64,000 nt of DNA, from the NCBI GenBank assembly GCA_028823995.1, contig JAPPFD010000009.1, positions 89,500 through 153,499 on the forward strand. The letters run 5' to 3'. The stretch is from a bacterium (GTDB lineage: Bacteria; Actinomycetota; Acidimicrobiia; Spongiisociales; ZC4RG35). The translations under genes were made by a program, and so were the position numbers. This document shows positions 851-62,146 of this stretch, piece by piece; position 1 is the stretch's first letter; each line of letters opens with the position of its first letter. Below the pieces are notes generated by a model that was not told the origin of the DNA, made no database searches, and was given only the letters and a program-made list of their open reading frames with translations.

Positions 851-876
851 AGGAGGCTGTCGAGGGTGATGGGATC

Positions 877-1132
877 ACACCTGCCGTAGGTTTTGCCACA
901 GGCTGTGAAAAAAGCTGCGGTGGGGAGGTTGATCTTGTCCCACGGACAGTCCCATATTGACATGAGCCAAACACCGAGACCCGTCCGCCCCAGGCGTCGC
1001 CCGGACCGCGTCGAGGGATCAAATCGACCCAATCAGCAAGCCTGTCCCAGGCTGGACAGAGCCTGTTCAACCCATGGAAAGGTGGTGGCGGGGGAGGGTT
1101 CCCGAAATAGGGGCTGAGAATTTCGCGACATT
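877..1132 (+). repeat. Dispersed ~255-bp intergenic repeat, copy A
   Basis: Aligns end to end with the reverse complement of 58692-58943. Shared blocks include ACACCTGCCG, TGTCCCAC, CCGAGACC, GACCGCGTCGAGG, CTGTCC-N6-GGACAGAGCCTGTTCAACC, GGTGGTGGCGGGG, GAGGGTTCCC and TTTCGCGACATT. Confidence 0.9.
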
Positions 1133-1148
1133 CCTGAAAGCTGCGGGA

Positions 1149-1170
1149 TGTCGGCTGTGATCAGTAGGGT
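1149..1170 (+). promoter_or_regulatory. PafBC/RecA-NDp-type DNA-damage promoter
   Basis: Exact TGTCGG-N10-TAGGGT match to the mycobacterial consensus TGTCGG-N10-TA-N3-T. A GTG follows 7 nt downstream (1178). Confidence 0.6.
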
Positions 1171-22487: not shown

Positions 22488-23078
22488 ATGAACGACGCTG
22501 ACCGGCTGTTCGGCCCGAGCACCGTCTCTGAAGTGATCACCTCCACCGAGATCGCGGAACGGGTGGCCGAACTGGGCAGGGCCCTTACCACCGAATACCG
22601 GGACCGCTCACCCGTGATGGTGGGGATAATGAAGGGATCGGTGTGCTTTCTGGCGGACCTGGTGAGGAACATGGATCTTGAGATGGAGATCGAGTTCCTG
22701 GCGCTCAAACGCTACAGGGAGGGCCCCTATGTCGGTATCGCCATGGACCTCTTCACCGATGTCGGTGGACGAGACGTGATCGTGGTCATGGACATGGTGG
22801 ACACCGGTTTCAACCTCGACGCCATCCACCGGTTGTTGAGAGAGCGTGCCCCGGCTTCCATTGCCACGGTTGCCCTTCTGGACCGGAAGGTGCGTCGGCT
22901 GATCGAGGTGCCCCTGGAATACCGCGGCTTTGAGGTCGGATACGACTTCCTGGTGGGATACGGCTTGGACTGGGATGGCCGCTACCGGGGGCTGCCTTCG
23001 ATTTGGGCGGTGCTCGATCGGTCGGCCCTCGAAACCGATCCCCATTTGCTCGACCGCCACGTGTTTGCGGAGAGGTAG
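22488..23078 (+). CDS. hpt: Hypoxanthine phosphoribosyltransferase-like protein (divergent motifs)
   Basis: VGIMKGSVCFLADL, VMDMVDTG, ALLDRK and FLVGYGLDWDGRYRGLP motifs. Confidence 0.85.
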   Translation: MNDADRLFGPSTVSEVITSTEIAERVAELGRALTTEYRDRSPVMVGIMKGSVCFLADLVRNMDLEMEIEFLALKRYREGPYVGIAMDLFTDVGGRDVIVVMDMVDTGFNLDAIHRLLRERAPASIATVALLDRKVRRLIEVPLEYRGFEVGYDFLVGYGLDWDGRYRGLPSIWAVLDRSALETDPHLLDRHVFAER

Positions 23079-34035: not shown

Positions 34036-34157
34036 GGCTACAGCCTCAAGAGAGATGGCTGCCATCGGGGGCTCCCCTCGATTGGGCGGTTTTGGACCGG
34101 CCGGCTCTCGAAACCGATCCCCACATTCTCGACCGTCAGGTGTTTGCGGAGAGGTAG
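34036..34157 (+). pseudogene. hpt: Displaced, frameshifted 3' fragment of hpt
   Basis: Reads GYSLKRDGCHRGLPSI[-1 nt]AVLDRPALETDPHILDRQVFAER* versus hpt GYGLDWDGRYRGLPSIWAVLDRSALETDPHLLDRHVFAER*. About 25 differences in 123 nt. Confidence 0.9.
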
Positions 34158-39919: not shown

Positions 39920-42424
39920 GTGGGTACCAGGACGCCCACCCGTCGGAGGCAGAGCGGGCGGAGGCGGGTGTCCTCCAAGAAAACCAAAAAGCCGGTCAAA
40001 GGGAAATCAGCGCCCAGGCGGCCGGTGAGTCCCCCTCAGCCCAAGTTGCCCCTGCGGAGTCGGCTGTGGTCTGCCGCTTCTTCCCGGATGGGCAAAGTGG
40101 GCGCCGAGGCGTGGGGAGTCATGCTCGTGCTGTTCTCGGTGATCCTCACCCTGTTCCTGGTGGGCGCCGGAGGACCGGCGGGGCAGGCCGTCAAGACCGC
40201 CTTCTCCTACCTGTTCGGCCAGTGGTCCGCTTTGACGCCCCTCGCCCTGCTGGGAATGGGCTTGGTGCTGGTTTTGGGGAAGCCGGCCCTGAGCAAGCGG
40301 CGGCTCTTCTTCGCGGTCATGGTGTTCTTCTTCTCCACCCTGGGGCTGTTCCACCTCCTGACCGGCGCTCCATCCCTGGCCAGCGGGGCTGAGGTCATCG
40401 GAGAGCGAGGCGGGGCGGTGGGCGCGCTGGTCGCCTTTCCCCTCCAGCGCTCGATCGGATACGCCTCCACCTTCGTGATCCTGGTGGGAGGGGTGACCAT
40501 GAGCGTCCTGATGGTAAGCAGGACGCCGATGCGGGAGTTCTTCGTGGCTTTGGGGGAGTTGATGATGTGGGCGCCCAGGATGATGCGGCGGCGCCGGACG
40601 CTCTCCCGCATCTCCAAGGCGGTGGCGGCCTCGGCGCCGGACTCGTCAACCGTCGTAAGGGCGCCGACCAGGACCGCCGGCAAACGCCGGGGATGGAGGA
40701 GGAAAGCCCTCGGATCGGGGCCGTGGCCGATCGCTCCCGTGTTGGAGGTCCCGGACGCCGAAACCGATCCCGCCGTTCCTGAGGCGGAGGTCCTCGAGGT
40801 GTTGGAGGAGGAGCCGGAGACCGACACCGTGGTACCGGGCTCTCCTCGCCTGCAGGTGGTGGAGGATCCACCCCTGGGCGGTTCGGACCTGTCTGGGCAG
40901 AACGGGCGGGTGAGCGGAGCGGGAGACGCGCCGGAGCCCCCTGCTCCCGATGTGAAGACTGCCCCGGACCGCGAAGCCGCTCCCACCTCCGAGTACCAAC
41001 TTCCCCCGCTCGATCTGCTGAGAAGGGGAGGAAAGGCGACGGGCACCTCCGAAGGCATGAAGAACACGGCCGCCGCCCTGCGCAAGGCGCTGTCGGACCA
41101 CGGCGTGGATGCCCGGATCACGGGGGTGGTGTCGGGGCCCTCGGTCACTCGCTTCGAAATCGAACTGGCGCCCGGGGTGAAGGTGCAGAAGCTGTCGGCT
41201 CTCTCCAATGACATCGCCTACGCCCTGGCCACCCCGGATGTGAGGCTGCTGGTTCCCATCCCGGGCCGCTCGGCGATCGGGGTGGAGGTGCCCAACGTGC
41301 AGCGGCGGCTTGTGAGGCTGGGTGACATCCTGGCCAGCCCCGAGGCCCGGGAGGATCACCGCCCCCTGGTGGTGGGGCTGGGGATGGACATCAGCGGCAA
41401 GCCGTGCTTTCTCGACTTGGCCGAACTCCCCCATGTGCTGATCGCCGGGGCCACCGGGGCCGGCAAGTCGTCTTGCATCAACTCGATGATCACCTCGCTG
41501 CTGACCAGGACCAGTCCCGAGGATCTCAAACTGATTCTGGTGGATCCGAAACGGGTGGAGTTGCGGCAGTACGAGGGCGCTCCCCACCTGCTCACCCGGG
41601 TGATCACCGATCCGAAGAAGGCCACCGAGGGGCTCAAGTGGGTCGTGGCGGAGATGGACCGCCGCTACGACCTGCTGGCCGAGGCTGAGGTGCGGGACAT
41701 CTCCGGGTACGCGGCGAAGTGGAAGATGGGGGCGCTGGAACCGGAGATGTTCGATCTCTTTCCGTATTTGGTGGTGGTGGTGGATGAACTCAACGACCTG
41801 ATGATGGTCGCCGGACGGGAGGTGGAGATGGCGATCGTGCGCATCGCCCAGATGGCGCGGGCGGTCGGCATCCACCTGGTGCTGGCTACCCAGCGACCGT
41901 CCGTGAACGTGATCACGGGGGTGATCAAGGCCAATGTCCCTTCCAGGCTGGCGTTCAGCGTGGCGTCCCAGACCGACAGCCGGGTGATCATAGACTCGGC
42001 GGGCGCCGAGAAGCTGGTGGGACAGGGCGACATGCTGGTTGTGACCGCCCGCCAACCCCGGCCGCAGCGGATTCAGGGAGCCTGGGTGGACGAGGCCGAG
42101 ATATCCCGGGTGGTTTCCTGGGTGACCCGCCAGGGCCGGCCGGATGGGTCAGTCGACGAAGTGCTGGAAATGGCCCTCACCCAGGAGGCGGCCGGCGCGC
42201 CGCCCGAGGACGACGAGGACGAGGAACTGCTGAGACAGGCAATGGAACTGGTGGTTCGCTCCCAGCTCGGCTCCACGTCCATGCTGCAGAGAAAGCTGAG
42301 GGTCGGGTTCGCACGGGCCGGCCGCTTGATGGACATCCTGGAGCGCAGGGGGGTGGTGGGACCCTCCCTCGGGTCCAAGGCCCGGGAGGTGCTGATCGGT
42401 CCCGACGAACTGGGGGTTCGCTGA
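39920..42424 (+). CDS. ftsK: FtsK/SpoIIIE DNA translocase
   Basis: N-terminal TM domain, GATGAGKS, VVDELNDLMM, LATQRPS and gamma domain LQRKLRVGFARAGRLMD. Confidence 0.96.
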   Translation: MGTRTPTRRRQSGRRRVSSKKTKKPVKGKSAPRRPVSPPQPKLPLRSRLWSAASSRMGKVGAEAWGVMLVLFSVILTLFLVGAGGPAGQAVKTAFSYLFGQWSALTPLALLGMGLVLVLGKPALSKRRLFFAVMVFFFSTLGLFHLLTGAPSLASGAEVIGERGGAVGALVAFPLQRSIGYASTFVILVGGVTMSVLMVSRTPMREFFVALGELMMWAPRMMRRRRTLSRISKAVAASAPDSSTVVRAPTRTAGKRRGWRRKALGSGPWPIAPVLEVPDAETDPAVPEAEVLEVLEEEPETDTVVPGSPRLQVVEDPPLGGSDLSGQNGRVSGAGDAPEPPAPDVKTAPDREAAPTSEYQLPPLDLLRRGGKATGTSEGMKNTAAALRKALSDHGVDARITGVVSGPSVTRFEIELAPGVKVQKLSALSNDIAYALATPDVRLLVPIPGRSAIGVEVPNVQRRLVRLGDILASPEAREDHRPLVVGLGMDISGKPCFLDLAELPHVLIAGATGAGKSSCINSMITSLLTRTSPEDLKLILVDPKRVELRQYEGAPHLLTRVITDPKKATEGLKWVVAEMDRRYDLLAEAEVRDISGYAAKWKMGALEPEMFDLFPYLVVVVDELNDLMMVAGREVEMAIVRIAQMARAVGIHLVLATQRPSVNVITGVIKANVPSRLAFSVASQTDSRVIIDSAGAEKLVGQGDMLVVTARQPRPQRIQGAWVDEAEISRVVSWVTRQGRPDGSVDEVLEMALTQEAAGAPPEDDEDEELLRQAMELVVRSQLGSTSMLQRKLRVGFARAGRLMDILERRGVVGPSLGSKAREVLIGPDELGVR

Positions 42425-55240: not shown

Positions 55241-56494
55241 ATGACTCATTATCGTCTCTCCACTTTGGACAACGGCCTGCGGCTGATCACCGAGGAGATG
55301 CCCGCGCTCCGTTCGGTGTCGGTGGGGTGCTGGGTGGACACCGGCGCCCGCGACGAACGCGCCAACGAGGCCGGAGCATCCCACTTTCTCGAGCACCTGC
55401 TCTTCAAGGGCACAGACGAGCTTTCCGCTCGCCAGATCGCCGAGACCTTCGACGGGATGGGGGCGGAGTCGAATGCCTTCACATCCAAGGAGCAGACCTG
55501 TTACTGGGCGCGTTTGGTGGACGACGACCTGCCGGTGGGGTTGGGGCTCATCTCCGAGATGCTGCAGCGACCCGCATTCCGGCAGAGCGAGATCGACTCG
55601 GAGCGACAGGTGGTGTTCGAGGAGATCAACATGCGGGAGGATGACCCTCAGGACTCGGCCTTCGAGGCCTTCAGCCGTACTGTCCTCGACGGCCATGCGC
55701 TGGGACGCCCCGTTCTGGGCACCCGGGAGTCGATCGGGGAGATGACCCGGGCCGACCTGGAGGGCTATTGGAGGAGACGCTACGGTCCGCATTCGATGGT
55801 GGTGGCGTTAGCCGGTGCGGTGCGGCATTCGGAGGCCCTGGAGTTGGTTGAGGAACTGTTCGGGGAGTGGTCGGGAGGGGAGGTGGGCCATGACTTCTCT
55901 CCCAACGTGCCGTCCGCATCGGTCGGACTGGTGGAGCGGGACACCGAGCAGGCCCACCTGGTGCTGGGAGGCGCGGGGATAGACCGGACCGACGAGCGGC
56001 GGTGGGCGTTCGGCGTGCTCAACCTGGTGCTGGGCGGGGGAATGTCCTCGCGTCTGTTCACGAGCATTCGGGAGGAGCGGGGATTGGCCTACGCCATCTT
56101 CAGCTTCGGCCACTCCTATGCCGACTCGGGCGTGTGGGGCATCTATGCGGGAACCACCCCCCGGCAGACCGCCGAGGTGATGGAAGTCATCGACGGCCAG
56201 CTCTCCATGCTGATGGAGGACGGCATAACCGATGCCGAGTTGGAGAAGGCGCGGGGCGCGGCGCGGGGGGCCCTGGCGCTGGCGATGGAGGACTCCCAGA
56301 GCCGCATGGTCCATCTGGGCCGCGAGGAGATCTGCGGGCTGGAGCACCTTTCCATGGACGAGCGGCTGGAGAGGATCCTGGCGGTGGACCGGGCCGAGGT
56401 CACCGAGGTGGCCCGCCAGGTCTTCTCGGGTCCCAAGACCCTGGGAGTGGTGGGACCGTTCGCAGAGTCTGACCTGACCGGGTACGTGACGTGA
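55241..56494 (+). CDS. M16 family zinc peptidase
   Basis: HFLEHLLFKGT (HxxEH), NAFTSKE and GGGMSSRLF motifs. Confidence 0.95.
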   Translation: MTHYRLSTLDNGLRLITEEMPALRSVSVGCWVDTGARDERANEAGASHFLEHLLFKGTDELSARQIAETFDGMGAESNAFTSKEQTCYWARLVDDDLPVGLGLISEMLQRPAFRQSEIDSERQVVFEEINMREDDPQDSAFEAFSRTVLDGHALGRPVLGTRESIGEMTRADLEGYWRRRYGPHSMVVALAGAVRHSEALELVEELFGEWSGGEVGHDFSPNVPSASVGLVERDTEQAHLVLGGAGIDRTDERRWAFGVLNLVLGGGMSSRLFTSIREERGLAYAIFSFGHSYADSGVWGIYAGTTPRQTAEVMEVIDGQLSMLMEDGITDAELEKARGAARGALALAMEDSQSRMVHLGREEICGLEHLSMDERLERILAVDRAEVTEVARQVFSGPKTLGVVGPFAESDLTGYVT

Positions 56495-57252
56495 CCATCC
56501 GGGTCGGGGTGGCGGGAGCGCTGGGCCGGATGGGGTCATTGATCGCCGAGACGGTTGCAGAAGCGCCGGATGTGGAACTGGTGGCCGGCTACGACCTCTT
56601 CGAAGGAGAGGTGGCGGGGACGTCGGTCCAGGTGGATGCCGCATGCCTGGCTGACGCGGATGTGGTGGTCGACTTCACCAACCCCGAGGTGGTGATGGAC
56701 AACCTCGCTAAATACCGTGACATGGACTGCCACGCGGTGGTGGGCACCTCCGGCTTCACCGCCGAGCGGGTCGACTCGGTCCGCGGTCTGTGGGGAGAGG
56801 AGCGCACGGCCCGGTGTTTGATCGTTCCCAACTTCTCGATCGGGGCGGTGCTGATGATGCGCTTCGCGCGAGCCGCCGCCGGGTTCTTCGCAGCGTCCGA
56901 GGTGATCGAACTCCACCACGACCAGAAGGCCGACGCTCCCTCGGGTACGGCGGTGTCCACCGCGGTGGGGATGGCCGAGACCGGAGGTCAGTCCCGGCAA
57001 GTGTCGTCGGCTGAGCTTTACGCGGGTGCGTTGGGCGCCCGGGTGGAGGGCGTTCCGGTGCACTCGGTGCGGCTTCCCGGCCTGCTGGCTCACCAGGAGG
57101 TGCTGTTCGGGAATCCCGGCGAGATCCTCACCATCCGCCATGACTCAACCGACCGGGTTTCGTTCCTGCCCGGAGTGATGCTGGCCGTGCGGGGAGTGTC
57201 GGGACTGGAGAGCGGTGTCTCGGTAGGACTCGAGGTCTTGCTGGACGCTTAG
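56491..57252 (+). CDS. dapB: 4-hydroxy-tetrahydrodipicolinate reductase
   Basis: GALGRMG, VDFT, GTSG, PNFSIG and HHDQKADAPSGTA motifs. Confidence 0.96.
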   Translation: MTIRVGVAGALGRMGSLIAETVAEAPDVELVAGYDLFEGEVAGTSVQVDAACLADADVVVDFTNPEVVMDNLAKYRDMDCHAVVGTSGFTAERVDSVRGLWGEERTARCLIVPNFSIGAVLMMRFARAAAGFFAASEVIELHHDQKADAPSGTAVSTAVGMAETGGQSRQVSSAELYAGALGARVEGVPVHSVRLPGLLAHQEVLFGNPGEILTIRHDSTDRVSFLPGVMLAVRGVSGLESGVSVGLEVLLDA

Positions 57253-57354
57253 CCGCCCCGTTGCTAAGACACAGCCCAGGTCGGCGGGCGCAGGTACGCC
57301 GGGCAGGGCCACATGCCCATCGGGTACTGGACCTCCGCATCACCAAACGCCGGA

Positions 57355-58575
57355 TCATTTTCTTTGTTTGAAGGGGGTCCGACGGCGCCGTCGGATTGTC
57401 CGGTTGCGCCGGACGGTGGTTGGGCTGTTGTGTTTGAGTGGTGGTTTGAGGTGGTATTTGCCGGTTGGTGTTTTGCGTACTTGCCAGTGGTCGTCGTGGA
57501 CTTTGTGGTGGCAGCGTGAGCACAATAGACACATGTCGTCGAGGTCGGTGTTGCCTTGGACGGCCCAAGGGATGATGTGGTGGGATTGGCACCAGTTGGC
57601 GCTAGCGCCACATCCCACGCATGCTTTGTCCCGGGCTACGAGGGCGATGCGTTGGGCGGGGCTGGCGGCCCGTCGTGACCGTCCCAGGTCCAGGGGTTGT
57701 GACATGCCCCGGAAGATGGCGGGGAGGATGTCCGATTGGCAGGCCAGGTCCCGGATCTTCTCTATCGGGATGGGGGTCCCGTCACCGAGACGCCCGTTGC
57801 GAAGCTCCCGAGAGACCACGTCGTAGTCGGCGATCAACAACAGCCTGGGTCCGCGGGGAGGTTTTCCGTCTTCGCCGGTGTCTTCTCTGGTGACCAACTG
57901 TGCCAGGGCGTCGGCCATTCGCTGGCCCGGAGAGCACCTTGCGCGGGGGTCTTCCTCACGCCACAGTTCGTTCATCTTCTGCGACAACGCCGTTTCGATT
58001 AAGGCGCCGGTGATCGGGTCGAACCGACCGTACAAAACGGTCATGCCGTCTGTGCGGTCGGTGCGGATCTTGGCGAACCTACGTGACCGTTGATGCTCCA
58101 ACCGCGACATCCCGTCGTCTTCTGAGCGTTGCTGTTGGTACTTGCGGACCGTCCCGGCGAATTTGTCAGGCGACTGGGTTCGGGCCTTGCCCACCAACTC
58201 TGTTTCGTCTATCTCCCCCTCCTGGGAGGCCCTGGCCAGGATCCGGGCGTTCTCATAGGGGATCTCTCCATCCCGCATCCCCTCCGACGTCTTAGGCAAC
58301 TCCTCCAGTTCCACCGCGGTTTCTACTTCCGAGCGGGCCTTCCGGCGGGGTCGCAGACCCTTCTCCCGCAGGTTGTCCTCGGTGATGTGGACGCCTTCTC
58401 TGCGGGTCAACTCCGCCAGCGTCTCGGCACGCACCGCCGCGGCCTGGTTCTCCACCCGGAAAGTGGACTGCAACCGTACCCGGAGCTGATCCAGGGTTGC
58501 GTCGCCCACCGCCAGATTGGGCAGAACCGCCTCGATCTGGTTGATGACCCGACCGTCCATGACTGTCTTTTCCAT
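57355..58575 (-). CDS. DUF222-domain HNH endonuclease (13E12-like)
   Basis: GQRMADAL, LDLGRSRR, RDKACVGCGASANWCQSHHIIPW..G.TDLDDMCLLCSRCHHKVH. Basic C-terminal tail. Confidence 0.92.
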   Translation of the reverse strand: MEKTVMDGRVINQIEAVLPNLAVGDATLDQLRVRLQSTFRVENQAAAVRAETLAELTRREGVHITEDNLREKGLRPRRKARSEVETAVELEELPKTSEGMRDGEIPYENARILARASQEGEIDETELVGKARTQSPDKFAGTVRKYQQQRSEDDGMSRLEHQRSRRFAKIRTDRTDGMTVLYGRFDPITGALIETALSQKMNELWREEDPRARCSPGQRMADALAQLVTREDTGEDGKPPRGPRLLLIADYDVVSRELRNGRLGDGTPIPIEKIRDLACQSDILPAIFRGMSQPLDLGRSRRAASPAQRIALVARDKACVGCGASANWCQSHHIIPWAVQGNTDLDDMCLLCSRCHHKVHDDHWQVRKTPTGKYHLKPPLKHNSPTTVRRNRTIRRRRRTPFKQRK

Positions 58576-58582
58576 GTGTACC

Positions 58583-58604
58583 AGTATGCCAAGGGGGTGT
58601 GACA
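58583..58604 (-). promoter_or_regulatory. PafBC-type promoter of the HNH gene (leaderless)
   Basis: TGTCAC-N10-CATACT, 7 nt before ATG 58575. Confidence 0.6.
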
Positions 58605-58691
58605 AAACACTGCTATATATCACCAAAATGGGAAAACAAACACGAATGTTCTTGGCGGTCCTCCCGTGAACCACCACCCGACTACCGGAGA

Positions 58692-58943
58692 AATGTCGCG
58701 AAAATCGGGGCCCCTATTTGGGAACCCTCCCCCGCCACCACCGTTCCATGGTTGAACAGGCTCTGTCCAGCCCGGGACAGGGCTTGTTGCATTACCTTTC
58801 TTTAGTTCCTCGACGCGGTCCTGGCGGCGCCTGGGCGGCCGGTCTCGGTGCTTGGCTCCTACCAATGTGGCCTGCTGGTGGGACAGAATCAAGCCTTCGA
58901 CCCCGGGTTTTCGAAAACCTGTGAAAAAAGCCGCGGCAGGTGT
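58692..58943 (-). repeat. Dispersed ~255-bp intergenic repeat, copy C
   Basis: Reverse complement aligns with 877-1132. Contains the palindrome GGTTTTCGAAAACC (58906-58919) and the CTGTCC/GGACAG stem (58763-58780). Confidence 0.9.
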
Positions 58944-59014
58944 CGCCTCAGCATCGACCCACCTCACCCTGGGGTTGTCCAAGTCCGGTGCCGACGAGGG
59001 CTATCCTCGCGGGT

Positions 59015-59905
59015 GTGAGTCCGCCTAACCTGCCTTTCGGCCGCGTCCTGACCGCCATGGTCACCCCCTTCGCCGCCGACGGATCGCTGGATACGGACAA
59101 GGCCGGCCGCTTGGCCCGCCACCTCGTGGAGAACGGGTCGGACGGATTGGTGATCAGCGGCACCACCGGCGAGTCGCCCACCCTTTCCTCCGACGAGAAA
59201 GTGCGCCTCTTCGAAGCCGTGGTCGGGGCGGTGGGAGACCGGGCCATGGTGGTGGCGGGTACCGGCACCTACGACACGGCCGGTTCGGTGGCGCTCAGCC
59301 GCCGGGCGGCCCAGGCCGGTTGCGGGGGAGTGATGGCGGTCACCCCGTACTACAACAAACCCACCCAGGAGGGACTGGTGGCGCACTTCGAGGCCATCGC
59401 CGACGCCACCGAACTCCCGGTCCTGGTCTACAACATCCCCTCCCGCACGGCCCGGCTGATCGAAGTCTCCACGATGGCCCGCCTCTCCACCCATCCCAAC
59501 ATCGTGGCCACCAAGGACGCGGTCATGGACCTCGACTTCACCTCCCTCACCGTGGAGACCGCCCCCGACCTGATCGTGTATTCCGGGCAGGACTCCTACA
59601 CGCTTCCCATGATGTCGGTGGGAGCCGTGGGGGTGGTCTCGGTGATCTCCCATCTGGCGGGGAGGACGGTGGCCGGGATGGTCGCCGCCGCCGCCGGAGG
59701 GGACTATGACAGGGCGGCCGCCCTCCACCATGCCCTCATGCCGCTGTCCGTGGCCTGTTTCATGGAGACCAACCCCGGCCCGGTCAAGGCGGCCCTTTCG
59801 GAGAGTTGGGAGCCGGTCGGGGACCTCCGCCTGCCGATGGTGGCGCCCGCCGGGGACACGCTGCGGGCTGTCATGAAAGCTTTGGCCGCATTGGACGGAG
59901 GGTGA
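59015..59905 (+). CDS. dapA: 4-hydroxy-tetrahydrodipicolinate synthase
   Basis: GTTGES, PYYNKP, VYNIPSRT, catalytic KDA and ETNPGPVK motifs. TATCCT lies 7 nt before the GTG. Confidence 0.96.
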   Translation: MSPPNLPFGRVLTAMVTPFAADGSLDTDKAGRLARHLVENGSDGLVISGTTGESPTLSSDEKVRLFEAVVGAVGDRAMVVAGTGTYDTAGSVALSRRAAQAGCGGVMAVTPYYNKPTQEGLVAHFEAIADATELPVLVYNIPSRTARLIEVSTMARLSTHPNIVATKDAVMDLDFTSLTVETAPDLIVYSGQDSYTLPMMSVGAVGVVSVISHLAGRTVAGMVAAAAGGDYDRAAALHHALMPLSVACFMETNPGPVKAALSESWEPVGDLRLPMVAPAGDTLRAVMKALAALDGG

Positions 59906-61553: not shown

Positions 61554-61576
61554 TGTCACACCGGGAATGACATCTT
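61554..61576 (+). promoter_or_regulatory. Possible PafBC-like promoter of comF
   Basis: TGTCAC-N11-CATCTT, 6 nt before the ATG. The spacer is one base longer than consensus. Confidence 0.35.
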
Positions 61577-61582
61577 GTCGCC

Positions 61583-62146
61583 ATGGTTTGGTGTCTGGCC
61601 TGTCTGCGACCCGCCGAACTGGCGGTCTGCCCCGATTGTCTGCGCACCATGGGTGCGGGGCCCTGGCGGAGGCTGGCGTGCGGGATAGGCGTGTCCTCGG
61701 CTCTTGTGCATCGGGCGGCGGCGCGCCGGTTGGTTCTCCGTCTCAAGTACGGCGGTTGCCGGGAGTCGGCCCAGGTGCTGGCGGCCGTGATGCACCCGCT
61801 CCTGCCGACCGACGCATCGGCCCTGGCGCCTGTGCCCCGCATCTACTCCCGGCGTTTGAAATACCGCTCCGACCCCGGCGTACTCCTCGCCGGGGCCCTA
61901 TCGCGGCGCTCGGGCCTCCCGGTCCGCGCGGTCCTCGGCCCTCGCCTTGTGGGTGGGGCCAACGCCGGGTTGGGCCGTACGGACCGGACCGCCCCCCGTT
62001 TTCGCCGCCGGTGGACTCCCACCGGTGGGTTGGTGCTGGTTGACGACGTGCTGACCACCGGGGCCACGCTGACGGCCGCCGCGGCCGCCCTCGGGCACTC
62101 GGTGGTGCTGGGGGCGGTCACCGCAACTGCCTCCTCCCATGCCTGA
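61583..62146 (+). CDS. ComF family protein
   Basis: N-terminal CxxC...CxxC and LKY. PRT motif LVDDVLTTGATL. Confidence 0.88.
   Translation: MVWCLACLRPAELAVCPDCLRTMGAGPWRRLACGIGVSSALVHRAAARRLVLRLKYGGCRESAQVLAAVMHPLLPTDASALAPVPRIYSRRLKYRSDPGVLLAGALSRRSGLPVRAVLGPRLVGGANAGLGRTDRTAPRFRRRWTPTGGLVLVDDVLTTGATLTAAAAALGHSVVLGAVTATASSHA

Follow-up and report, generated by a model that had tools for sequence, protein, structure and literature searches.

The 64,000-nucleotide stretch of DNA analysed here (the window; contig JAPPFD010000009.1 of GenBank assembly GCA_028823995.1, positions 89,500 to 153,499 of the forward strand) derives from a bacterium of the class Acidimicrobiia and contains, between the genes dapB and dapA, a DUF222-HNH nuclease gene lying next to one copy of a repeat of ~290 nucleotides (nt). 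The reading which we favour, with somewhat better than even confidence, is that these are two independent elements, namely a selfish nuclease cassette resembling the REP13E12 elements of Mycobacterium tuberculosis, and an older family of probable RNA genes, the repeat, beside which the cassette is preferentially found. Genes of the DUF222-HNH (13E12) type occur in abundance among Actinobacteria; in M. tuberculosis, one of their hosts, they drive gene conversion and large inversions. Neither a function nor a way of spreading is known for them.

The HNH genes and repeats of the window were compared with those of related Acidimicrobiia metagenome-assembled genomes (MAGs). The nearest GTDB representative is OZ242375.1 (2.61 Mb), whose flanks are 94–97% identical; other related MAGs are RHO1_bin_21, RHO3_bin_31, Plut_88890 and SB0665_bin_24 (RHO1, RHO3 and SB0665 below), which, to judge from their names, would appear to be associated with sponges or corals. 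The sister lineage CBDBCY was compared as well. A protein-based scan, made independently of the repeat, gathered 43 HNH loci in 10 MAGs. The repeat was sought by pattern scans, nhmmer and a covariance model in a census which is incomplete, in that it covers the fetched loci only. The only genomes in which the repeat family was encountered are GTDB genomes from a single clade of Acidimicrobiia, and a scan of metagenomes with an invariant 20-mer of the repeat returned 18 loci, all of them unrelated chance matches.

Comparison of paralogous and orthologous copies, ~35 in all, gives the cassette well-defined limits. Similarity begins at TT(T)AGTGTTTGTTTT and runs to AAAATGA plus ~10 nt. When HNH loci are aligned on the ATG they share a 72-nt left end, TT(T)AGTGTTTGTTTTnCCAnnTTnGTGnTATAnnGCnGTGTTTTGTCACACC-N7/8-(C/T)ATA(C/A)T-N7-ATG, and the sequence 5′ of this end differs at every locus; on the 3′ side similarity ends at the stop codon (...AAACAACGAAAATGA) with an ACCNCC-like tail of ~10 nt, beyond which the flanks diverge. 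In other words, the cassette consists of a promoter and an open reading frame (ORF), and nothing else. Necessarily, since the shared homology runs only from 72 nt before the ATG to the stop codon, both the repeat, which in the window starts 38 nt beyond the left end, and the ~100-nt trailer behind the gene are excluded from the unit. A preliminary description of this DNA had correctly listed the features present (the HNH ORF, TGTCAC-N10-CATACT with an ATG 7 nt on, the repeat and the trailer, all between dapB and dapA), but had taken the repeat to be a conserved upstream module or end of the element and the trailer to be part of it. Neither assignment survives the comparison, the only BLAST matches of the trailer being at the orthologous dapB loci of OZ242375 (L067), RHO3 (L036) and SB0665 (L078). 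A longer ORF of 440 amino acids with a GTG start at 58677 was rejected, as that start falls outside the conserved cassette. A 7-nt complementarity between the left end of the cassette (GTGTTTG) and a block of the repeat (CAAACAC) is missing in half of the copies, and was judged to be due to chance. The features of the window are collected in Table 1.

Table 1. Positions in the window of the nuclease cassette, the repeat copies and the features around them.
Feature	Position	Strand	Basis and remarks
DUF222-HNH cassette, 1,292 bp	57355..58646	-	Conserved 72-nt left end with promoter, ORF, and stop codon as right end; ~35 copies compared
DUF222-HNH ORF, 406 amino acids	57355..58575	-	Pfam PF02720 and PF01844; first ATG conserved in all copies
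PafBC-type promoter-like element	58583..58604	-	-26 TGTCAC (58604-58599), N10, -10 CATACT (58588-58583), 7 nt, ATG at 58575
Variable spacer between repeat and cassette	58647..58680		Length differs between species at the dapA locus
Repeat copy C	58681..58971	-	Core 58681-58947, 5′ extension to ~58971; BLAST, nhmmer and covariance model (221 bits); probable structured RNA
Repeat copy A, solo	851..1143	+	Starts immediately behind an acyl-CoA dehydrogenase gene, whose TAG stop (848-850) precedes the core by 26 nt; covariance model 256 bits
TGTCGG-N10-TAGGGT motif after copy A	1149..1170	+	No gene behind; GTG 7 nt on opens a 6-codon ORF
dapB (dihydrodipicolinate reductase)	56491..57252	+	Pfam DapB_N and DapB_C; orthologues found; left flank of the insertion
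'Trailer', a locus-specific spacer from the dapB stop to the HNH stop	57253..57354		Outside the HNH cassette
dapA (DHDPS)	59015..59905	+	Pfam DHDPS, E 2.4e-86; start GTG 59015 by homology, start region aligned with L079; right flank of the insertion
Second promoter of the same class	61554..61585	+	TGTCAC-N11-CATCTT-N6-ATG, before a ComF-like phosphoribosyltransferase gene just after rnj

The dapB–dapA junction is occupied in five species, that is in the window, OZ242375 (L067), RHO1 (L060 and L073), RHO3 (L036) and SB0665 (L078). In CBDBCY (L079), whose DapB is 79% identical, the two genes are 30 nt apart with neither repeat nor trailer between them, from which it follows that the ~1.73 kb present here (trailer, cassette, spacer and repeat) is inserted material. 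The insertion proposed in the preliminary description is thereby borne out, and at this one site both the empty and the occupied alleles that mark a homing endonuclease are found. CBDBCY does carry copies of HNH gene and repeat at another place (L047). The distance between repeat and cassette at the dapA locus is ~38 nt in the window and RHO3, as against ~165–170 nt in OZ242375 (L067 2262-2428) and RHO1 (L060 2257-2428). Moreover, the repeat that RHO1 has at the dapA locus belongs to the clade of repeats found downstream of HNH genes, whereas the window's copy there does not, which suggests that exchange takes place between repeat copies too.

The repeat itself has a distribution of its own. 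The copy beside the cassette matches copy A (58689-58943 on the minus strand against 877-1135 on the plus strand; 78.5% identity over 261 nt, E 1e-50 by BLAST), and these are the sole two copies in the window, such that the name 'copy C' of the preliminary description belongs to a genuine repeat and at the same time implies more members than the window holds. Related genomes have 2–6 copies each (four MAGs). The scans found ~25 good and ~10 degenerate copies overall. Solo repeats lie 3′ of unrelated genes, including sodN (in three species), acyl-CoA dehydrogenase (copy A), an F420H2-dependent quinone reductase and groEL, and their orientation is always that of the upstream gene. The conserved core is preceded by a locus-specific segment of 25–50 nt. 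At five independent loci a well-supported, co-oriented ORF upstream has its stop codon 22–29 nt before the core; behind HNH genes the corresponding distance is 46–53 nt. The copies placed in this way after a stop codon are that at 851 in the window and those at L001, L004, L005, L010, L013, L015 and L016, usually in the context CTAG or CTAA.

In the sodN–metG spacer the three-way identity across the repeat is 0.67–0.93, about that of the flanking genes, and in the next ~50 nt only 0–0.37. Orthologous repeats group by locus, and paralogous repeats are 70–87% identical. Terminal inverted repeats (TIRs) and target-site duplications (TSDs) were looked for around the repeats, and gave only matches of 8–11 nt with one mismatch, as expected by chance, with no consistent TSD. 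To judge from these comparisons, the repeat is an independent element, vertically inherited, older than the cassette and under purifying selection, with a conservation approximately that of coding DNA. Coding by the repeat itself was rejected, as indels of 1–2 nt between copies break every frame. Searches of Rfam at gathering and permissive thresholds, with the window and eight loci, gave nothing overlapping the repeats; ARAGORN detected no transfer RNA (tRNA) or transfer-messenger RNA (tmRNA) in the window, and a manual reading of the opposite strand of the repeat as a tRNA-like 3′ end failed.

Behind copy A lies a promoter-like motif, on account of which the preliminary description had seen a recurrent layout of repeat and promoter at 877–1170. 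The motif is indeed there, a perfect match to the PafBC consensus discussed below, but it is not a feature of the family, in that it has no gene behind it, does not recur 3′ of the other repeat copies, and sits 13 nt past the end of copy A as against ~85 nt at copy C. It would aim into the 3′ ends of minus-strand genes, and is in part a repetition of TGTCGA..GTGAT, which stands at the 5′ edge of copy A.

Several properties of the repeat would fit an RNA. A structure model of five parts and 41 pairs was built by hand from the same related sequences on which it is scored. It comprises a closing helix P1 (UGUGAAA with UUUCGCG), a 12-bp helix P2 (UYYUGUCCCACC with GGUGGUGGCGGGG), a hairpin with a conserved GGCGUC loop, the stem of which has compensatory substitutions and paired deletions (GUCCG/CGGAC, GGUCGCU/AGCGACC, GUUC/GAAC, CGGCC/GGCCG), and two short hairpins. 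When 23 copies are aligned with MAFFT, pairing is found in 84.9% of cells, as against 34–50% with slid partners (31–50% over both alignments); nine pairs change on both sides versus 3.9 in shuffles (reached by 2 of 500), and the covariation score is 0.136 versus 0.110 (reached by none of 500). In an alignment of 36 hits fitted to the model, two-sided changes affect 19 pairs, as compared with 6.7 in shuffles, none of 500 of which reached the observed value. P1 and P2 have 25–33% G-U pairs, and are 91–95% paired on the repeat strand as opposed to 62–66% on its complement. If the structure is real, this strand-specific pairing means that the RNA has the same orientation as the upstream genes and the HNH gene. 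From the pairing data it is likely that the repeat is a structured RNA.

A further property of the repeat in this regard is its use by an integrase. At four loci (L002, L005, L007 and L016) the repeat is broken after GGCGGGGGAGGG (GGGGGAGGG) and followed by identical foreign sequence. In L002 and L016 the junction is succeeded by a P4-type tyrosine integrase (Arm-DNA-bind_3, Phage_int_M and Phage_integrase), which is intact in L016 (5131-6455) and frameshifted in L002 (2147-3487); in the closest relative, OZ242375, the break in the copy orthologous to copy A is followed by the integrase and a Fic/DOC gene, and the same junction is present at a second locus in three species. Since L002 is the orthologue of copy A and copy A is intact, the window contains the empty attachment site, with a crossover near 1098/1099. 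The element supplies ...GGUUUCGUAGCG..., the UUUCGUA of which can pair with all seven bases of P1 through UA and GU pair types, and this substitute 3′ end would lend indirect support to P1 and to the idea of a functional RNA. The genes of tRNA and tmRNA are targets of P4-type integrases, and the islands that target tRNA genes rebuild the 3′ end of the target, while repetitive extragenic palindromic (REP) sequences are targets of insertion sequences. The repeat resembles such targets in being a conserved, multicopy integration site with a co-oriented integrase directly downstream and a substitute 3′ end; it differs from them in being neither tRNA nor tmRNA, in its absence from Rfam, and in its length of ~290 nt, which is far greater than that of REP sequences. 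Past copy A, at 1271-2607 on the minus strand, are a PD-(D/E)XK nuclease gene (PDDEXK_4) and a gene for 181 amino acids without Pfam match, both with a G+C content at third codon positions below that of their neighbours; as OZ242375 has the integrase island in place of this segment, the region is a variable one, and it is possibly a small defence or mobile island.

It can be asked whether the repeat is an RNA gene at all, or rather an old mobile element that targeted TA sites (CTAG or CTAA), which in a GC-rich genome are mostly stop codons, the HNH genes then being simply among the genes behind which it landed. The start of the repeat at a stop codon at 5–6 independent loci, mostly CTAG or CTAA, and the multicopy nature of the family are what such an origin would give. 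Set against these are the lack of TIRs, TSDs or recent copies, the purifying selection across species, helices which are strand-specific and G-U-rich and have compensatory changes, and the retention of helix P1 by the replacement 3′ end of the integrase element. Furthermore, at least eight landings behind HNH genes would be needed among ~2,500 genes, which is far above chance. We consider this origin unlikely.

The association between the two elements is seen when the HNH loci are taken as the starting point. A repeat lies within ~200 nt of the cassette at 8–10 of ~17 independent HNH loci. It is upstream and co-oriented at the dapA locus, in orthogroup (OG) 6 and at L061, and downstream and co-oriented in OG1, OG7 and L064 (core 46–53 nt after the stop) as well as at L047, where it follows 2 nt after the stop and lacks its first ~15 nt; OG4 has a weak downstream co-oriented match (E 5e-4 to 2e-3), and in OG3 the repeat is upstream and inverted. 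The gene followed by the repeat is the commoner arrangement. In OZ242375, 5–6 of eight HNH loci have a repeat where ~1% per locus would be expected from at most 20 repeats in 2.6 Mb (binomial P ~1e-8), and in the window's own genome two of the three known HNH loci have one. The repeats adjacent to HNH genes are often degenerate, scoring 13–39 bits as against more than 200 bits for solo copies. At one locus of the window's genome, with the gene order lepA-hemW-HNH-hrcA-dnaJ (L160 2473-2775; kept in four species as OG6), a degenerate repeat, overlapping the radical-SAM (hemW-like) gene at its end, stands before another HNH cassette.

The link between repeat and HNH genes suggested in the preliminary description is thus real in these genomes, although downstream positions are commoner than upstream ones, one orthogroup is inverted and about half of the loci have no repeat. 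That description had gone on to interpret the repeat as an end or module of the HNH element that acts in cis, with the solo copies as the element's non-autonomous derivatives in the manner of miniature inverted-repeat transposable elements. The statistical association would fit this, as would a composite, recurring at two or more loci (OG1 and OG7), in which the HNH gene is followed by ~48 nt of homologous spacer and then by the repeat. It is nonetheless contradicted by the limits of the cassette. In addition, the solo repeats share no cassette termini, possess neither TIRs nor consistent TSDs, and are 70–87% identical, conserved about as well as coding DNA, at orthologous sites and grouped by locus, whereas the HNH copies group by genome. 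Derivation of the solo copies from the cassette is therefore most improbable.

The encoded protein has an N-terminal DUF222 domain (PF02720, E 1.3e-25, 90.8 bits against a cut-off of 24.4) and a C-terminal HNH domain (PF01844, E 4.8e-7, 30.3 bits against a cut-off of 21.4), in which the zinc cysteines C319, C322, C352 and C355 and the HNH histidines H332, H333 and H360 are invariant in 40 homologues. For the HNH domain the top matches in the PDB and NCBIfam are to IscB, followed by group II intron maturase, and the C-terminal tail is rich in arginine. These properties raise the possibility of an RNA-partnered nuclease, in which the RNA of the repeat would be guide or scaffold for the DUF222-HNH protein, as the omega RNA (HEARO) is for IscB, or as in TnpB systems, with the solo copies acting in trans. 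Beyond the IscB-type HNH domain and the arginine-rich tail, such a partnership would account for the adjacency and common orientation of an RNA-like repeat and the HNH gene at most associated loci, an arrangement similar to that of IscB beside its co-oriented structured non-coding element of ~250–300 nt, and the locus-specific segment of 25–50 nt before the core might be seen in the same light. What the partnership does not accommodate is the variable position of the repeat (upstream, downstream or inverted, at 2–170 nt), its lack at about half of the cassettes and its location outside the shared cassette homology; nor does it accommodate the fact that the repeats next to HNH genes are often the most degenerate, while solo repeats are conserved at the 3′ ends of host genes irrespective of any HNH gene. 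From the protein side, Pfam finds only DUF222 and HNH, with no RuvC, PLMP or TID domain, and the NCBIfam guided_IscB match reaches 30 bits against a cut-off of 175, within the HNH motif only; from the RNA side, no HEARO match was found in Rfam. A guide or scaffold role for the repeat is accordingly very unlikely.

The promoter in the left end of the cassette is of a particular class. The motif recognised by PafBC is tGTCgg(N10)tA(N3)T, in other words a PafBC-specific -26 element with a canonical -10 and no -35 (PMC8635444). Compared with this consensus, the TGTCAC-N10-CATACT of the cassette matches at GTC and at A2 and T6, with the same spacing, and differs at positions 5–6 and in a -10 hexamer that starts with C. 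The block is kept in ~33 HNH copies, a subgroup of which has TGTCAC-N11-TATAAT or TATACT, and no sigma-70-type -35/-10 pair was found in 57150-59100. Because the ATG comes only 7 nt past the -10, a leaderless mRNA is implied, and the HNH mRNA is probably translated in this form; induction of the gene by DNA damage via PafBC would be its most likely mode of control. The likeness to mycobacterial PafBC promoters therefore lies in the bipartite arrangement of TGTC at -26 and a -10 hexamer 10–11 nt on, in the missing -35 and in the predicted leaderless start, whereas TGTCAC in place of TGTCGG and the -10 hexamers CATACT or TATAAT set the present promoter apart, with PafBC control being here a prediction. 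A second promoter of the class, before the ComF-like gene (a weak Pfam Pribosyltran match), has both hexamers kept and a variable spacer in four species (window, OZ242375, RHO1 and CBDBCY), such that the organism appears to use this class of promoter.

As the preliminary description had supposed, the HNH gene is multicopy, and has the appearance of a selfish one. Close relatives with genomes of ~2.6 Mb have 8–12 copies, the complete genome OZ242375 at least eight and the window's own genome at least three. Among 26 full-length copies 23 are intact, with median non-synonymous (dN) and synonymous (dS) divergences of 0.12 and 0.75 and a dN/dS of 0.16, values which indicate that the cassette is kept intact by purifying selection. 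From comparison of the flanks, most insertions are at orthologous positions in 2–5 species (nine orthogroups plus singletons). In a neighbour-joining tree, however, the copies group by genome and not by locus, and at dapB–dapA the window and OZ242375 are 97% identical in the flanks and only 85% in the cassette. Orthologous sites together with clustering by genome and a cassette more diverged than its flanks point to concerted evolution, through gene conversion or recurrent re-copying. The REP13E12 loci of M. tuberculosis are likewise hot spots of gene conversion and inversion (PMC13061034; PMC13157036). The preliminary description had set a vertically inherited HNH gene at this junction against its idea of a mobile unit; the site is vertical in five related species, whereas the sequence of the cassette departs from the species tree.

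An alternative explanation of this pattern is that the HNH copies are domesticated and immobile nucleases of the DNA-damage response, their adjacency to the repeat being the relic of a few ancestral duplications. Most insertion sites are common to 3–5 species, purifying selection is strong, and the promoter class is that of another host gene, all of which would be in keeping with domestication. Set against this, the grouping of copies by genome and a cassette far more diverged than its flanks indicate continuing exchange; several copies are decaying, and the sets of copies differ between species. Domestication is, in our view, fairly unlikely.

Given that the cassette and repeat are independent elements, what would bring them together is most likely a homing-like copying of the cassette. 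DNA damage would give rise to single-stranded DNA, which would be sensed by PafBC, such that the HNH cassette is switched on and its leaderless mRNA translated. The damage-induced nuclease may then cut in or near copies of the repeat, or breaks may arise there, and repair would copy the cassette from a cassette-bearing repeat, with one junction, that at the repeat, made through homology and the other by end-joining. Such a one-sided repair would place the cassette beside another repeat and would leave variable spacers; within a genome the cassettes are, as the tree shows, homogenised by gene conversion or by re-copying between copies. The repeat acts in this reading as a landing pad for mobile DNA, with HNH cassettes at its 5′ edge, its 3′ edge or inside it, and the P4-type integrase at one fixed position. 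A stronger version is that DUF222-HNH cassettes home onto a family of structured-RNA genes, the nuclease recognising the repeat as DNA or via its RNA, and in the extreme form with the RNA as cofactor; we put this forward tentatively, as a possibility that is more doubtful than probable.

A number of observations weigh against the reading of a selfish cassette beside an older RNA family. With regard to the insertions, most are ancient and common to several species, and neither a recent transposition event nor an HNH target site was caught among the loci examined; the dapB–dapA junction gives the sole pair of empty and filled sites among the fetched loci. With regard to the association, roughly every second HNH locus lacks a detectable repeat, from which it follows that the repeat is not an obligatory target, and the repeats downstream of HNH genes form one clade and share a homologous spacer, such that a part of the association may stem from duplication of a composite of HNH gene and repeat rather than from many independent insertions. 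With regard to the RNA, covariation is modest, the changes in P1 and P2 are mostly one-sided (C or U opposite G), the structure is tested on the very sequences from which it was built, and folding of single sequences gives z-scores of +0.9, -1.4 and -0.5, no better than shuffles. The AlphaFold2 model of the protein, made with 40 close homologues, has a predicted local distance difference test score (pLDDT) of 50.5 and a predicted template modelling score (pTM) of 0.28, too poor for a fold search. Transcription of the repeat, induction by DNA damage and the leaderless start are all deduced from sequence.

Elsewhere in the window, a 76-nt direct repeat (86% identity) ending in TAG is present at 23003-23078 and 34082-34157, with a weaker third copy at 40739-40778; it is probably the conserved 3′ end of paralogous genes.

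Two known systems bear comparison with the cassette. It has in common with the DUF222-HNH genes of REP13E12 in M. tuberculosis both Pfam domains, the multicopy state, gene conversion or recombination between copies, a promoter of the DNA-damage type and the lack of a defined function. It differs in its host, a distant class of host-associated Acidimicrobiia with genomes of ~2.6 Mb, and in its limits, which are crisp and can be mapped to 1.29 kb. Moreover, in M. tuberculosis the REP13E12 repeat itself holds a prophage attachment site, whereas here the target of the integrase is the separate repeat. We know of no report in which REP13E12 is associated with a separate RNA-like repeat. The second system is that of free-standing homing endonuclease genes such as the seg and mob genes of phage T4, known for 'intronless homing'. 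These too are a promoter and a nuclease ORF in intergenic DNA, present or absent by lineage, for which copying by recombination is likewise deduced, but the present cassette occupies many chromosomal loci rather than one allele, and would use a dispersed repeat as its homology.

For the 13E12 family, this clade of small genomes offers an unusually clean view, with exact limits, a conserved and probably leaderless promoter of the DNA-damage type, copies that evolve in concert, and a measurable preference for a single, conserved partner sequence. In this regard, the DNA or RNA of the repeat provides a concrete and testable target for the nuclease. The repeat, for its part, is a candidate for a new structured RNA that starts at the stop codons of unrelated genes, and it serves as an integrase attachment site, a role that has so far typically fallen to tRNA and tmRNA genes. 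If the proposed scheme is true, it would be the first mechanism put forward for the movement of 13E12-type elements, and the repeat would represent a new RNA family which doubles as a landing pad for both HNH cassettes and P4-type integrases.

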